Positions 57,140-63,290 of a DNA stretch of 64,000 bases are shown in pieces. Each line of letters begins with the position of its first letter. Positions within the stretch are counted from its first letter, which is position 1. The notes under the pieces were generated by a model. It was given only the letters and a program-made list of their open reading frames with translations, was not told the DNA's origin and made no database searches. Source of the stretch: a plasmid. The DNA lies in assembly GCF_055900595.2 (NCBI RefSeq), contig NZ_JBVWEU010000003.1; one strand, 5' to 3'. The position numbers and the translations under genes were made by a program.

Positions 57140-58759
57140 TCAGATGATATTGGGCGTGATCAGCACCACGAGAATGGTGTCGTCGTTTTCACTGTTGATC
57201 CCACCGCCAAGACCGAAGAATCCCGGCGTGCCTACACCCTGTTTTCCGCTGCGACGTCCTGACTGCTGGAAGCCACTGATAATGACCGTCTGCCCGGATT
57301 TCAGATCCACGGTCTGATTGATGGTTTTCAGATCCACATTCGGCAGCTGGGCTTTACTTCCACCGCTTTCATAATTCTCAATAACCGGTTTGTCGGAGAG
57401 ACTCATGGAATAGAGCAACTGCAGTGTCTGTGAGTCCGGGAGAATGAACGGCAGAAGGGTCATGTTAAAACCGGTGGTGATGGTGGCCGCATTCAGGGAG
57501 GTGGATGAGCCGACATTGGCAGTGGTATCCGTCGTCACACTCTCGATGTAACTCTGCTGATTGGCGATCTGCATTGGCACCGGCGTCAGGTTTTTGGTGA
57601 CGGCAGAGTGCTGGGTCACCACACTGACAACCCCCTGGGAAGACAATGCTTTCAGGAAGGCTTTTGAACCGGTGAGTTTACCGTCCACAATGGAAACACC
57701 ACCTGTGATGGCATCACTGGCTGCACTGGTGAATGTGCTGCCGAGACTCAGTCCCAGCGTTCTGTCGCTGAAGACTGCGTTCCAGTCGATACCGGCCTGC
57801 TCATTGCGGGTTTTCCGGATACTCAGAATTTCCACATTCAGCACCACCTGACGTTTCATCTCTTCATTGCGTTTTTCAATGAATGCCCGGACCGTTTCCA
57901 GAACCTGTGGATTATCTGTGACGGTTATAAAGCCCGTGGACATGAACATGCGTCCGATACCCGGGGTCAGCATTGATGTGACCGCATTTTTCACATCCTG
58001 ATACAGCGCAGACTTCATATCCACGGTGGTGGTCTGGGTATTGCTGGCATCACCGGAAATGGCATCTGATGCACTGCCTCCTGATGAGCCGTTTGAGGAC
58101 ATGGTGCCGCTGACCACAGTGGCGTTATAGGTCACCTGACTGTCCATATAGGTGATGGGGAAGGTCTGTGTCTCGAGATAATAGAAGATGATATGCGAGC
58201 CGTCATAGCGCCAGGATATACCGAGACGGGAGGAGACCGCATTCAGCAGGGTCGTCAGGCCGGAGGCATTCAGTTCAGACAGTGCTGCGGTATTTCCCGG
58301 CAGACGGGATGATGGCGTGTCAGATGCGCCAATGGCGGCAAGGGGAACCATGCCGCTTGCATCCGGTGGGGGTAACGCGCCCTGGATTTGTTGTGTGCTG
58401 CCGGTTGTGGATGTATTCAGGTATGTCAGTACATCAGGTGTGATCCGTACAGGAATATGGCAGCTTTCCGTGATCCGCTGAACCACCTGCTGAAGGGTGA
58501 TGCTCTGACGGGTATGAATGACAATGGGACAACCGGGAACGGTTTTGCCGGTGTTTTTATCCATGACCGGACGGGGATTGATCCATTGTCGAGAGGATTC
58601 CTTAACAACCGGCGTCCGGGTTCGCAGATCAGACATCATTTCCCGTGCCCGTTGTTGTTCCGCAACGGCTTCCTTTCTTGTGCTCTCAAGCTGTCTGTAA
58701 CTGGCACAGCCCTGTAACAGAGCGGCGGCAATCATAATGGCAAGAATTTTTTTATTCAT
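57140..58759 (-). CDS. pilN: PilN secretin lipoprotein
   Basis: 539 aa; lipoprotein signal MNKKILAIMIAAALLQGCAS; secretin-like C-terminal domain. Confidence 0.85.
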   Translation of the reverse strand: MNKKILAIMIAAALLQGCASYRQLESTRKEAVAEQQRAREMMSDLRTRTPVVKESSRQWINPRPVMDKNTGKTVPGCPIVIHTRQSITLQQVVQRITESCHIPVRITPDVLTYLNTSTTGSTQQIQGALPPPDASGMVPLAAIGASDTPSSRLPGNTAALSELNASGLTTLLNAVSSRLGISWRYDGSHIIFYYLETQTFPITYMDSQVTYNATVVSGTMSSNGSSGGSASDAISGDASNTQTTTVDMKSALYQDVKNAVTSMLTPGIGRMFMSTGFITVTDNPQVLETVRAFIEKRNEEMKRQVVLNVEILSIRKTRNEQAGIDWNAVFSDRTLGLSLGSTFTSAASDAITGGVSIVDGKLTGSKAFLKALSSQGVVSVVTQHSAVTKNLTPVPMQIANQQSYIESVTTDTTANVGSSTSLNAATITTGFNMTLLPFILPDSQTLQLLYSMSLSDKPVIENYESGGSKAQLPNVDLKTINQTVDLKSGQTVIISGFQQSGRRSGKQGVGTPGFFGLGGGINSENDDTILVVLITPNII

Positions 58760-58789: not shown

Positions 58790-59227
58790 CTAATTCATCC
58801 AGAGGATGACGTGATCGGGGATCACTGACGGAAGTGTGATGGAAAGCGCTCTGCCGGCAGTGTCCAGCAGCCGGCCGTTTTCCACCCTGCCGAGGAGGGC
58901 AGAGTCATGACTCTGTTCCCTGAGGGCGGCCATCAGGCCCGGGGTTTCTGTGGCCCAGACAAAAACACGTTGCTGGCTGATGATATGACTGACGGTATCC
59001 GTCCCGGGAAGCCCGAGCTGAGCGGATGTCAGCCGCCCTCCGGCTGTCCGTCGTTCCGGATTCTGATGCAGGTAATCATTGATGGCGTTCATATAACGAA
59101 TGAACGTTGCTGCCTGTTGTGTGTTTTCTGCGGCCTGATGACGGTGTTCGCTGCGGGAGAGCTGACTGGTGAACCAGAAATTGCCGGTGGTCGTGATGAC
59201 CATGATGAACACGATGAACCAGCCCAT
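58790..59227 (-). CDS. pilM: PilM
   Basis: 145 aa; N-terminal TM helix; size as R64 PilM. Confidence 0.7.
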   Translation of the reverse strand: MGWFIVFIMVITTTGNFWFTSQLSRSEHRHQAAENTQQAATFIRYMNAINDYLHQNPERRTAGGRLTSAQLGLPGTDTVSHIISQQRVFVWATETPGLMAALREQSHDSALLGRVENGRLLDTAGRALSITLPSVIPDHVILWMN

Positions 59228-59231
59228 AAGG

Positions 59232-60302
59232 TTATTCCTGTGGACGATCTGTCACCCGCAGCAGACATTGTGCTGTGCTGGTCCGGGCATACAGCGGTTT
59301 TTCCACCGGGGTGTAGAGTGCAAATAGCTGTTCCAGCGCCTGGCGGAAACTGCCGGTGAAAACCAGAGGAGCATCGATGCTGTAGTTGACAGGTGTTTCC
59401 CAGCGCAGTGTCCATGTGCCGTGCGGGCATTTTTCGGATGATGTCCAGCGGGCCAGTCCGTCTTTCAGGGTGGTCCCCTTTTCCATTTTCCACTGCCGTG
59501 GCGGTATGACCTTCTGCGGTGGTGTCACTACCGGTTTCGTGGCCACCGGGGCTGGCGTGGTTGTTCTGCTCTCTGGTGTTCCGGATGTCCCGGTGGTGGT
59601 CTGAGCCCGGGATACGCTGACGGCAGGTGGTACCTGTGCCTGGTCTGCCGCTGTTCCGGTTGTGCTCCTGAACGGATTACGTGGTGTGTCCGCTGTTTTC
59701 TGTGAACCCTGCGGTGTCGTGACGTCGACCGGCGGTGTTGCAGAGGTCGTGACAGTCAGTATTTTCCTGTTCCAGTCCATATGTCCGTAAAGCTGCTGGC
59801 CGGCCAGCAGCGCATTCAGTGCCCGGTGCCACTGGTCATTAACGGACCAGGAAGGGAGGCGTTTGTTCAGTGCCGGTGTGGCGGCATTCTGCTGGCGGAA
59901 CTGCCAGCCGGTTGGCAGCAGCTGGCGTATCCAGTCACTGACGGTGCGCTGACGTGCTTCACGTAAATAAACGACGGATGAGGGACCGGGCTTACCGGTC
60001 ATAACCAGTGCAGACAGCGGTGTGGCCTGAAGAAGCGGGCGGGGAGGCAGTGCGGTACTCTGGCTGCTGACAGTGGTTGAGGGTGTCGCCGTTGTTGTCG
60101 GACGGGGCGGTGTCACAGGGCGGGTCACCGGTGGCGGAAGCAGACGTTTTTGCGTATGGGTGATAATGGCAGCACTTTCGCGAATTTGTCCGTCGACGAA
60201 CACCAGAGCCGGAGGCGTGGTATCCGGAACAGGCGTGGCATTAAATGCCGTACAGCCGCTGAGTAATGACGGCAGAAGGAGTGTCAGTGATTTCTTTTGC
60301 AT
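59232..60302 (-). CDS. pilL: PilL lipoprotein
   Basis: 356 aa; lipobox MQKKSLTLLLPSLLSGCTA; Pro/Thr-rich linker; size as R64 PilL. Confidence 0.8.
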   Translation of the reverse strand: MQKKSLTLLLPSLLSGCTAFNATPVPDTTPPALVFVDGQIRESAAIITHTQKRLLPPPVTRPVTPPRPTTTATPSTTVSSQSTALPPRPLLQATPLSALVMTGKPGPSSVVYLREARQRTVSDWIRQLLPTGWQFRQQNAATPALNKRLPSWSVNDQWHRALNALLAGQQLYGHMDWNRKILTVTTSATPPVDVTTPQGSQKTADTPRNPFRSTTGTAADQAQVPPAVSVSRAQTTTGTSGTPESRTTTPAPVATKPVVTPPQKVIPPRQWKMEKGTTLKDGLARWTSSEKCPHGTWTLRWETPVNYSIDAPLVFTGSFRQALEQLFALYTPVEKPLYARTSTAQCLLRVTDRPQE

Positions 60303-60423
60303 AGAATATAATCCGGTATATTACGGGTTACGGTATAAGACAGGTGGCGGGTAACTGGCCTTCAGATGAATATCATTTCATCGGGTTATTGATGATGAAC
60401 CTTAAAAATCACAGAGGTGATGC

Positions 60424-60819
60424 ATGATAAAGAAGATGTGGCGTTATTTACGGCAAATTGATAAGTATGAATTGCTGCAGCAGGTGATTTCAGTACATGA
60501 AGTGGAACTGCTCAGGAAAATGATGACAGATTCATTATTAGGGTGCTCAGTAGGATATGTGTTTTCGAAAATACTGAAGATATCCTTTCTGCGTTTTATT
60601 CAGTCTGAGGGGGGATGGGATATTATTACTTACTTTTTGTGGATGCTGGGAATACTTATTGTCATGGTCGCGCTGTTTATCTGGATGTGCGCCGCTGTAT
60701 GCTATGAGCTTCGGATGTATAAAATAAAAACAGGAAGGGAGAACGATATATTATTCTGGGTGTGGATTCTTCTTTTTGATGTCGCGGTTGTATTTTCGCT
60801 GGGTAATGTTATCTGGTGA
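60424..60819 (+). CDS. Small membrane protein on the + strand, convergent with the next ORF
   Basis: 131 aa; two C-terminal TM helices; long ORF in roughly 40 percent GC DNA, so unlikely to be chance; stop codon abuts the stop of the 60820-61251 ORF (TGATTA). Confidence 0.5.
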   Translation: MIKKMWRYLRQIDKYELLQQVISVHEVELLRKMMTDSLLGCSVGYVFSKILKISFLRFIQSEGGWDIITYFLWMLGILIVMVALFIWMCAAVCYELRMYKIKTGRENDILFWVWILLFDVAVVFSLGNVIW

Positions 60820-61251
60820 TTATGGGTTCAGTGACATATGGAAAAAGATAAGTGCGAACATTGATACTGAAGAATAATATATCCAGGAATAGAAAAACAT
60901 GAATTTCGGAGATGGTTTCTTCTGTCTCCTGTTTTTCAGGGGAGTCTGTGGGTCAAATGTTATCAGCGTCATTAAAGGATACCCTTTCATAAGAATAAAA
61001 ATATAGACGCATAAATGAGCGTAAAGAGGTAACCTGTCCTGCCAGAACAGAATCATCATGATGACGGCAAGATGAAATGTCGTTACATTGATATAATAAA
61101 ACCAGCTGTATTTACGCAGATACTGTTGGATATTCACGCTGTCAGCATGCGGTTCTGGTGAACAATTTATGCAAAAACAGAAGAAAGAAATGATGATGAA
61201 CACGGTCAGAGTGACCGGTAATACAGTCACAAGCAGAAAGAGTATGGACAT
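60820..61251 (-). CDS. Small polytopic membrane protein
   Basis: 143 aa, four predicted TM helices, AT-rich; occupies the pilK/pilJ position upstream of pilL, but homology is not recognisable. Confidence 0.5.
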   Translation of the reverse strand: MSILFLLVTVLPVTLTVFIIISFFCFCINCSPEPHADSVNIQQYLRKYSWFYYINVTTFHLAVIMMILFWQDRLPLYAHLCVYIFILMKGYPLMTLITFDPQTPLKNRRQKKPSPKFMFFYSWIYYSSVSMFALIFFHMSLNP

Positions 61252-61323
61252 AAAAATATCTCCGTCAGGATAGTGTGATTATTCCTTTATGGTTCCATAA
61301 CCCGGCGTAGCTCCGTCGACTGG

Positions 61324-61704
61324 TTATAATTTTATCCGGGACCTGGCTTTAAGGGGTAATGCCACCTCTTTCCATTCACTACAGCTTCCGGGAATACGTT
61401 CTGTGCGTCGTATTATTCGTGTGTTCTGGCATACAATAATCAGGGCATTGTCTGCCGTCTGAAAAGGCATAATCGCAATGTTAATATCTTCTGTTGCCGG
61501 GATACAGATGACTTTCTTTTCACATGTATTGGTGTATATGACAACTCTGAATTTTTCTGCGGACATTTTCAATCCTCTTTTAAACCAGAATATCCCGTGA
61601 GGGCATTCTTTGTGAAAAAGTTCTGTGGACTTCTCTATGACGGCAGGTAATGCATCCAGCAGGGCAAGACGGAAGCGGAGGCTGGTCTGCTCATCCGAAA
61701 GCAC
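61324..61704 (-). CDS. Hypothetical protein (pilI/traD position)
   Basis: 126 aa; no motif recognised. Confidence 0.45.
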   Translation of the reverse strand: MLSDEQTSLRFRLALLDALPAVIEKSTELFHKECPHGIFWFKRGLKMSAEKFRVVIYTNTCEKKVICIPATEDINIAIMPFQTADNALIIVCQNTRIIRRTERIPGSCSEWKEVALPLKARSRIKL

Positions 61705-61842
61705 GTTAATGGCATCGTTCAGTGCGCGCTGTGCTTCTGCTTCTGCCAGACCTTTCTGACGGGTGGCCTCCGCCAGTTCAATAATTGCTGCTGCCTGGAG
61801 AAGTCAGCGGAGAGTGGCTGCTGTTGTGGCTGTCCCGGTATT

Positions 61843-62508
61843 TCAGTGTAACAGGTGATTGCTGTGATCTATGCCCCATTCGGCTTTCGGTAAACCTGAA
61901 TGCCCCACATGAAGAATGCGTGACAGCATGTTTCTGCCGCTGCCGTTCAGGCTGCATTCGCGTCCGTGCGCGAGTATAAAACCTTCATCCCGGAATATCT
62001 CTTCCACTTCTGAAGATTCGAGGGATGCCGGATGAATTAATGAAAATGCCACCGGTCTGAGCATTCTGCCCGTGGTGGAAAAGGTGTCTCTGGTACTGTT
62101 CAGCTGCAGGATATGACGTTTACCTGTTTGCGCACGGGAAAGTGTCTCACTCAGCAGCTGGTCGTTCCATGCGCACGTGCCAATCTGCCATCCCAGACTT
62201 CGGCACGCGGAAAGAGCCGAGCGGAAGCGGTACAGGTCGTATAATGCTGCGTTATTGCCACTTTCCAGCAGTGATTTCAGCGTATTTGCTACCGGTATGT
62301 CCGTATTAGTGGCCAGCAGTTTTCGCAGAGTCGTAAACTCTTCTGCCATTCCTCTGAACTCGCGCATCTGACGGGCAGTGTCAAGCCAGTTCAGCAGGTA
62401 ACGCCGGCGACGCCGTTCGTTGTTTATGTTGTCCGGGGCGGTGGAGAGTGCTTCGAGCATATTCTCCAGTAACAGAATGACAGGGTTTTCCTGGGATAGA
62501 ATGGTCAT
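61843..62508 (-). CDS. traC: TraC-position transfer regulator
   Basis: 221 aa; immediately downstream of the NusG-like traB; positional assignment. Confidence 0.5.
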   Translation of the reverse strand: MTILSQENPVILLLENMLEALSTAPDNINNERRRRRYLLNWLDTARQMREFRGMAEEFTTLRKLLATNTDIPVANTLKSLLESGNNAALYDLYRFRSALSACRSLGWQIGTCAWNDQLLSETLSRAQTGKRHILQLNSTRDTFSTTGRMLRPVAFSLIHPASLESSEVEEIFRDEGFILAHGRECSLNGSGRNMLSRILHVGHSGLPKAEWGIDHSNHLLH

Positions 62509-62648: not shown

Positions 62649-63290
62649 TCATGTCAACGCTCCGTCATCAGATACCAGGTGCAGGAGCAGGGCGATCCTC
62701 GACTCCGGCAGAGGCTGTGCATCAAGCCGGAGGAGGTACTGGTAACGCGCTTTTGTCAGCCAGAGGGTGGAGGCAGCATCCAGCTCCTCCCTGGCTGCCG
62801 GATTGAGCGCAGGATCCGGGTACACTTTCATTAAAGACTGAACGATATCCTCCCTGACGGTTTTGATTTCACCGGCCATTTTCACGAAGCCCAGAAAGGC
62901 ACTGTGACGGCGCAGGTGAGTGAAAGCGTGGCGTTCGGGGTCTGCTTTCAGGAAGAAGTAACCGGGAAACACGGCGTGTATATGTCGACGGTAACCACAG
63001 ACTTTATCCGTGCGGCGGACTTTTTTCAGTATCAGGGGTGTCCAGGGAAGGACGTGTTGTTCGGAAAGCCAGGAAAAGAGATGTTCGCGGTTTTTGCCGG
63101 CAGGGATGTACTGAGCCAGATACCAGTTGCGTTGATGTAATTCACTGATATTCAAAATCCGGAACGCTCCGCGAAAATCGATCCCCGCAGGGGGGCTTCG
63201 ATGTTGTTGTGAACGGCGAATACATAAAGCATGTGTCGGAAACAGCGGCTGACCCACGTTCAGCCCGGCCTGCAGTTCTGACAGGCACAT
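62649..63290 (-). CDS. traB: TraB, NusG/RfaH-like transcription antiterminator
   Basis: NGN-domain motifs (WYLAQYIPAGKNREHL..., HAVFPGYFFLKA); first gene of the - strand transfer regulon in this window. Confidence 0.7.
   Translation of the reverse strand: MCLSELQAGLNVGQPLFPTHALCIRRSQQHRSPPAGIDFRGAFRILNISELHQRNWYLAQYIPAGKNREHLFSWLSEQHVLPWTPLILKKVRRTDKVCGYRRHIHAVFPGYFFLKADPERHAFTHLRRHSAFLGFVKMAGEIKTVREDIVQSLMKVYPDPALNPAAREELDAASTLWLTKARYQYLLRLDAQPLPESRIALLLHLVSDDGALT

Follow-up and report, generated by a model that had tools for sequence, protein, structure and literature searches.

What are the two small, convergent open reading frames (ORFs) that occupy an AT-rich interval next to the thin-pilus gene pilL of an IncK2-type plasmid? 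We addressed this question in a stretch of 64,000 nucleotides of plasmid contig NZ_JBVWEU010000003.1 (NCBI RefSeq assembly GCF_055900595.2), hereafter the window, which matches many E. coli plasmids at 100% identity; these are typed IncK2/Z, MOBP and MPF_I, and the CMY-2 plasmids KR905384-90 from poultry and humans are among them. The plus-strand ORF is here called gene C and the minus-strand ORF gene A; they lie between pilI and pilL, in the slot that holds pilJ and pilK in R64. The reading that we favour, with about an even chance of being right, is that A and C would be genuine genes forming one allele of a modular accessory cassette in this slot, and that they would encode a nonessential, weakly constrained pair of inner-membrane proteins. 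The part of this reading that describes the genes as real, accessory and modular is firmer than the whole. The allelic state pilI-A-C-pilL, designated type 1, is typical of IncK2 poultry/CMY-2 plasmids within the K/B/O/Z branch of the I-complex.

The initial annotation had described a 131-residue plus-strand ORF and a 143-residue minus-strand ORF with abutting stop codons, and both the ORF list and the sequence bore this out. The junction reads tggTGA/TTAtgg, with the TGA of C at 60817-60819 and the TAA of A at 60820-62 (TTA on the plus strand). It was also correct that such ORFs are improbable by chance: when the 951-bp stretch was simulated 5000 times under a first-order Markov model, a stop-free frame of 131 codons or more arose with P=0.034 and two such frames with P=0.0002. 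Each gene is preceded by a Shine-Dalgarno (SD) site, AGAGGTG 4 nt ahead of the ATG of C and GGAG 8 nt ahead of that of A. In related plasmids, C has a counterpart, C', at the equivalent position on the antisense strand (33-36% identity, E 1e-16; L003, L004, L008 and L009 in our numbering of compared loci), and A aligns to both halves of a larger protein, B (27-29% identity, E 1e-9 to 1e-13). The protein homology of C is kept although blastn finds no nucleotide match across the corresponding segment. Because of the chance test, the SD sites and the divergent homologues at the same place and in the same orientation, both ORFs are very probably genuine protein-coding genes. The exact A sequence (P0054) is present on at least 1000 public contigs, and alleles 90-92% identical to it adjoin pilI in L009-L014. 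A is not called by the Prokaryotic Genome Annotation Pipeline (PGAP), and it is entered in GenBank and UniProt as an uncharacterised protein.

Substitution patterns point to constraint on these genes that is real but weak. The ratio of nonsynonymous to synonymous substitution rates (dN/dS) was 0.39-0.56 for A, 0.30-0.43 for B and 0.43-0.49 for C', compared with 0.19-0.36 for pilL and 0.08-0.31 for pilM. Synonymous changes were in significant excess in B (P=0.002) and C' (P=0.01); for A the result was borderline (P=0.03 and 0.19). Window-type C had just five single-nucleotide polymorphisms (SNPs) among type 1 loci, all of them nonsynonymous and too few for a test of selection.

In tblastn and contig look-ups, homologues of A and C were confined to plasmids of the same clade and in every case lay between pilI and pilL. 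Four pieces recur in this slot: D, a soluble protein of 106-118 residues with a CxxC motif; A; B, a protein of 295 residues that is a tandem duplication of the A module; and C or C', a small protein with two to three predicted transmembrane (TM) helices encoded on the opposite strand. They were arranged as pilI-A-C-pilL (the window, L001 and L018-L021), pilI-A-B-C'-pilL (L009-L014), pilI-B-C'-pilL (L004 and L005), pilI-D-(A remnant)-B-C'-pilL (pECOED, L003, and L008) and pilI-D-pilL, at times with a 34-codon C' stub (L015 and L016).

The closest comparison is with the B+C' cassette of IncK2/Z-typed plasmids (pECOED NC_011754, NZ_CP132729 and the Logan contigs L009-L014), which is homologous to A+C, occupies the same slot and likewise consists of orphan genes. 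An intact C-type gene was always tail-to-tail with an A-module gene, the two stop codons being directly adjacent in the window and having an 8-nt overlap in the B/C' types. The window further differs in having the single module A instead of, or besides, the fused double module B, and in a C that has diverged to the extent given above and contains a run of six G (G6). In blastn comparison with L009, the match over pilI and A (88%) stops precisely at the A stop codon, 60819/60820, and the match on the pilL side (95.6%) restarts at 60403, 20 nt ahead of the start codon of C. Thus sharply bounded, a 415-bp segment with the divergent C replaces the 1.4-kb B+C' block of relatives. In addition, variable sites among window-type loci amounted to about 1% in the A-C island, 4.6% in pilL and 9% in pilI; because the island is less variable than its flanks, this suggests that either the island or the flanks have been moved by recombination.

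Occurrence of the cassette was limited even within its own clade. Among 463 PLSDB plasmids that match pilM-pilI, about 100 were of the window type and about 50 had C', and approximately three quarters of the clade were without A and C. The largest group, with 244 records and many of them from Shigella sonnei, fell within 80-90% identity; every row sampled from it had a span of D-only length, and the one inspected (L016) contained only D. Judged from this distribution, all pieces of the slot appear dispensable and most plasmids of the clade would keep only D. No relatives of A, B, C, D, PilJ or PilK were detected upstream of pilL in a Citrobacter plasmid or an IncI-gamma/K1 plasmid, nor elsewhere in the window, apart from R64-type PilJ/PilK in the IncI-gamma/K1 plasmid. 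It has been reported that the pilI/J/K segment varies by recombination among IncI1 plasmids and that pilJ-pilK is a site of allelic replacement and small insertions (PMC8004404). The A-C pair appears to be a previously unreported allele of an already known variable region. A 2026 study of IncK2 plasmids names pilus genes and "several hypothetical genes" as part of the core and does not discuss the locus (PMC12987596).

D was located at 3170-3505 of L015, 3253-3573 of L016 and 4158-4505 of L003, and has the motif PVTCPVCF. It received no family assignment beyond a weak PADLOC echo of PDC-M07B (E 0.047). The largest identity group of the clade appears to carry D at the slot.

Both proteins had been described as membrane proteins, and hydropathy and AlphaFold2 agree on helical membrane proteins. 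For C, hydropathy gives an N-terminal basic/amphipathic region of about 37 residues followed by two to three TM helices: two strong segments (75-93 and 109-127) and a weaker, amphipathic one at about 38-59. For A it gives three strong TM segments and a fourth that is aromatic-rich. AlphaFold2 predicts four helices in each, with low to moderate confidence (predicted local distance difference test, pLDDT, 52 for A and 68 for C), and A is, on these predictions, a single 4-TM module. Searches of NCBIfam, PHROGs, Pfam and PADLOC gave nothing significant for A, B, C, C' or D, with zero PADLOC families for A, B, C and C'; PDB sequences searched with the family profiles gave no significant match. The C model had no Foldseek match with E below 1 in AFDB50 or PDB, and the A model was too poor for such a search. 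The family C profile matched 10 of 1.84 billion representative proteins, all belonging to family C, and with the A/B profile a word-indexed search of 5.8 billion proteins brought up none outside the family, every named source being E. coli. Alignment of family C with family A/B by hhalign was not significant. Both families, A/B and C/C', are orphans. The Pfam scan lists FtsX (E 0.005), DUF2428 and CAAP1 for C and DUF5389 (E 1.6) for A; the FtsX echo, which also ranked seventh in Foldseek, was judged compositional.

The composition of the locus could be read as a sign of a foreign island. The AT-richness itself was evident, with a GC content of 0.384 for 60350-61300 versus 0.537 for the whole window and 0.59 for pilL, and the trough extends over about 60200-61700, taking in pilI (GC 0.42). 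GC at second codon positions (GC2) of A and C was 0.28-0.31, reflecting T-rich hydrophobic codons, and GC at third positions (GC3) was 0.47-0.48 versus 0.60-0.68 in pilL, pilM and pilN; GC3 exceeds GC2 in the called frames of both genes. Because GC2 is low and GC3 is only moderately reduced, the AT-richness stems largely from amino-acid content, and the true compositional offset is smaller. The foreign reading was toned down and is only partly right, since GC2 rather than GC3 carries most of the bias. Relatives share the trough (GC 0.32-0.45 in the L009 version of the slot), as does R64 pilJ-pilK (0.33-0.39).

Natural variants bear directly on what the pair might do. G5 and G7 alleles of the G6 run in C were present on about 42 draft contigs, and A was intact in the G7 loci inspected (L019, L021 and L022). 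In L017 (NZ_CP029742) C has an internal 308-bp deletion, and in L029 (NZ_MG825371) C lacks its SD site and first 25 codons (window 60363-60499), again with A intact in both. Conversely, in L018 a frameshift alters the last helix and C-terminus of A and C is intact. Of 92 finished plasmids, 84 were identical across a 76-nt segment around the G6 run; the other eight differ at one position, and the five of these that are listed show no change in length. C' encodes the same Glu-Gly-Gly without a G run. The G6 run is prone to mutation rather than being a conserved contingency tract. Phase variation at the run was considered and rejected: C' alleles lack the run, and no length change was seen among the 92 finished plasmids.

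L017 and L029 represent two independent natural deletions inactivating C. A cluster of polymorphisms (I77M, L78V, V82A/T and A83V) lies at C codons 77-83 (60652-60672), in the main TM helix, and the draft contigs L024-L026 break off precisely at codons 82-83, a hint of heterogeneity within the samples.

One alternative is that the ORFs are functionless, decaying leftovers of an older D-A-B-C' array, kept open only by recent clonal spread of IncK2 plasmids. We regard this as unlikely, yet it is the alternative that survives best. Different lineages have lost different pieces and retain stubs (the A remnant of L003 and L008 and the 5' stub of C' in L016), dN/dS is relaxed with a borderline test for A, the C frameshifts and deletions and the five nonsynonymous SNPs are as expected of decay, and PGAP does not call A. 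However, A/B and C/C' retain their length, TM layout and motifs down to 27-36% identity, and the synonymous excess in B and C' is significant. In addition, the C variant P0005 contains two frameshifts, the second of which compensates the first and restores the frame, and the segment around the G6 run is, as described above, nearly uniform among finished plasmids.

The initial annotation had also raised a toxin/immunity or exclusion pair, and this proposal did not fare well. In its general form, A and C would be a cognate toxin/immunity, addiction or exclusion module in which one membrane protein harms cells or blocks entry and the convergent partner neutralises it or sets specificity, so that an allele swap would change specificity. 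The immunity proteins of pore-forming colicins (Ia, Ib, E1 and A) offer the nearest model: they are small inner-membrane proteins with three to four TM segments, plasmid-borne, AT-rich and allele-specific, and their genes are convergent and tail-to-tail with those of their partners, much as the small polytopic proteins A and C are arranged. Moreover, C alleles with only 33-36% identity sit in a backbone that is 90-95% identical and change along with the adjacent A-module gene, and repeated loss of C would suit a costly gene. However, no match to a toxin, immunity, toxin-antitoxin or defence family was found in PADLOC, Pfam, NCBIfam or PHROGs, including the colicin-immunity families of Pfam. 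Neither protein has a secreted or enzymatic domain, and, in contrast to colicin loci, there is no colicin, lysis gene or SOS-regulated operon nearby, the neighbours being pilI and pilL and the supposed partner itself a polytopic membrane protein. The supposed immunity gene can be lost with its partner intact (L017, L019, L021, L022 and L029), and A can be altered with C intact (L018). Because natural variants separate A from C, the locus is a poor fit to an addiction or immunity pair that needs neutralisation. Together with the absence of both genes from most of the clade, the variants argue against such a pair as well as against an essential role in the pilus. I-complex plasmids already encode an exclusion function, excA, elsewhere (PMC12987596). 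Altogether, we consider a module of this kind improbable.

A broader version is a rather remote prospect: A/B and C-type proteins would make up a polymorphic, two-part membrane system of cognate proteins, tied to the thin pilus and serving as a self/non-self device. Such a device might act as pilus-level exclusion, as protection from pilus-specific phage, or as a contact-dependent membrane toxin with its immunity protein, and its specificity would be reset by replacement of the cassette, as in the contrast of A+C in the window with B+C' in relatives.

The slot itself invites comparison with R64 and ColIb-P9 (IncI1, type IVb), where pilJ-pilK also lies between pilI and pilL, also has low GC and also encodes small membrane-anchored proteins without a Pfam family. 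The suggestion that A and C replace pilK/pilJ stands as a statement of position and falls as one of similarity. Blastp found no match of A or C to PilK, and hhalign of A/B against PilK gave a probability of 0.2%; the clear orthology of the minus-strand ORF to PilK that the initial annotation had envisaged was found by neither method. For PilJ, hhalign with A/B gave 6.6%, confined to a 16-column QQYLQQY motif, and blastp gave E 0.2-0.3. No PilJ, PilK or TraD homologue was detected anywhere in the window. R64 PilK has one N-terminal membrane region and a large soluble C-terminal domain, whereas A is all-TM; both R64 genes run in the operon direction, whereas C is antisense; and, unlike pilJ-pilK in R64, A, B and C are missing from most of the K/B/O/Z clade. 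PilK is reported to be required for pilus formation (Yoshida et al. 1999, as cited in PMC10286972), the S. Typhi pil operon is described as being without pilI, pilJ and pilK (PMC6232867), and for a plasmid from the other major I-complex cluster mating on surfaces is said to need traBC and not type IV pili (PMC10286972). It is very improbable that A, perhaps with C, is a functional equivalent of PilK/PilJ required for the thin pilus and diverged beyond recognition: the shared slot, the AT-rich character, the lack of any other such homologue and a short QQYL(R/Q)(K/Q)Y motif common to A/B and PilJ would fit, but there is no significant similarity, the topology and the strand of C differ, and at least two D-only types (L015 and L016), including the largest identity group, keep pilL-pilN, as inspected, without A, B or C. 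As a separate observation, R64 PilK and TraD (L006 30693-31283 and 32350-32916) are paralogous to each other (27% identity, E 3e-15), and both are absent from the window plasmid.

Under the favoured reading of A+C as an accessory cassette, the two proteins would be subunits of a small inner-membrane complex that modulates the thin-pilus or conjugation envelope machinery without being required for it, and they would be held by weak purifying selection and easily lost. A would be made from the pilI transcript, pilI and A probably being co-transcribed. C would be transcribed from the conserved spacer that it shares divergently with pilL. Its transcript would end inside the 3' end of A and thus overlap the last 30-40 codons of A in antisense. 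Since transcription of pilI-A would meet C head-on before reaching pilL, it could not simply continue into pilL; pilL-V would need either a start of their own in the 105-nt spacer or readthrough against C.

Several signals at the locus can be set beside this scheme. About 105 nt upstream of pilL are kept in every allele type in an alignment of seven types, also in plasmids that have lost C. Conservation even without C fits control signals for pilL, and the spacer is presumed to be a putative control region for pilL and for C. A perfect TATAAT lies at 60307-60312 on the plus strand, without a good -35 element. The terminator-like site for the C transcript is weak by itself, one having been found versus 1.6 expected by chance. 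Plus-strand RNA of 60735-60945 folds unusually well (z = -4.07) and is closed by the 13-nt inverted repeat; folding of minus-strand RNA across the junction was not significant, and an Rfam scan of 59800-62000 gave nothing relevant.

Two minor features of the spacer were noted. An 11-codon upstream ORF, MMNLKNHRGDA, spans 60392-60427 and ends in a TGA overlapping the start codon of C (ATGA); the corresponding stretch of C' alleles is in frame with the gene. The plus-strand sequence GGCGGGTAACTG at 60346-60357 bears a loose resemblance to the RfaH ops element GGCGGTAGnnTG, agreeing by eye at 7 of 10 specified bases, and the same plasmid encodes the RfaH/NusG-like TraB.

A number of points weigh against the reading of A and C as a functional accessory pair. 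The dN/dS of the cassette genes, 0.4-0.5 versus 0.1-0.3 for pilL and pilM, indicates weak constraint, and C has been knocked out repeatedly in nature with A left intact. That A is conserved on more than 1000 contigs may reflect no more than the recent epidemic expansion of IncK2 plasmids. A physical interaction between A and C is deduced from adjacency and co-replacement only, both of which linkage alone could yield, and position is all that ties the pair to the pilus. In addition, a consensus promoter scan of the pilL-C spacer gave nothing above threshold, and no transcriptomic or proteomic data set for an IncK2 plasmid turned up in the literature searched.

Resistance genes, blaCMY-2 among them, are passed between poultry and humans by IncK2 and related I-complex plasmids, whose thin pilus governs liquid mating and recipient choice. 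The slot before pilL is a small mosaic pieced together from four orphan genes that are interchangeable and of which one is antisense, and it could serve as a cheap typing marker for these plasmids. Identification of the 143-residue gene A, missed by PGAP, corrects the annotation, and the natural alleles and knock-outs form a defined set for study of pilus expression, mating and fitness. As it stands, this is an accessory locus described from its sequence, and the understanding of conjugation is unchanged by it.

Positions of the genes and other features are collected in Table 1.

Table 1. Genes and sequence features at and around the pilI-pilL slot, numbered from the first letter of the window
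Feature	Position	Strand	Remarks
Gene C	60424..60819	+	131-aa ORF, ATG start; PGAP: hypothetical protein WP_058100832.1
Gene A	60820..61251	-	143-aa ORF, ATG start; pil orientation, directly downstream of pilI
Allele-specific segment	60404..60818		No nucleotide match to B+C' type relatives (blastn against L009, L012 and L013); the sole such part of the locus
pilL-C spacer	60303..60423		About 105 nt nearest pilL kept in all allele types
G6 run in gene C	60609..60614	+	Codons 62-64; natural frameshift hot spot
Perfect 13-nt inverted repeat	60745-60757 / 60871-60883		Symmetric about the stop-stop junction
Terminator-like hairpin and T run	60908..60937	+	For the C transcript; antisense, inside the 3' end of A
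pilL	59232..60302	-	TcpQ-family lipoprotein (PF10671); first conserved thin-pilus gene; divergent from C
pilM	58790-59227	-	Neighbouring gene
pilN	57140-58759	-	Neighbouring gene
pilI	61324..61566	-	80 aa; annotation of identical plasmids; Pfam PF10623 on orthologue
Flotillin gene fragment	61620..61800	-	Internal, 181 bp; RefSeq pseudogene; 99.4% match to L009 3168-3348
traC	61843-62508	-	Neighbouring gene
traB	62649-63290	-	NusG/RfaH-like

All flanking genes (pilN, pilM, pilL, pilI, traC and traB) are on the minus strand, so that C is indeed antisense to the pil direction, as the initial annotation had stated. Its placement of the pair between the tra regulators and pilL was right for the pilL side; on the tra side, pilI and a 181-bp fragment of a flotillin gene intervene. 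Relatives have an intact pair of yqiJ (NfeD-like) and flotillin (yqiK-like) genes between traC and pilI, and the fragment is the remnant of a deletion of that pair. The mechanically listed 126-residue ORF at 61324-61704 is pilI extended upstream by 46 codons; the internal ATG at 61566, which gives a protein of 80 residues, is the start used both by PGAP and in the Pfam PilI match.

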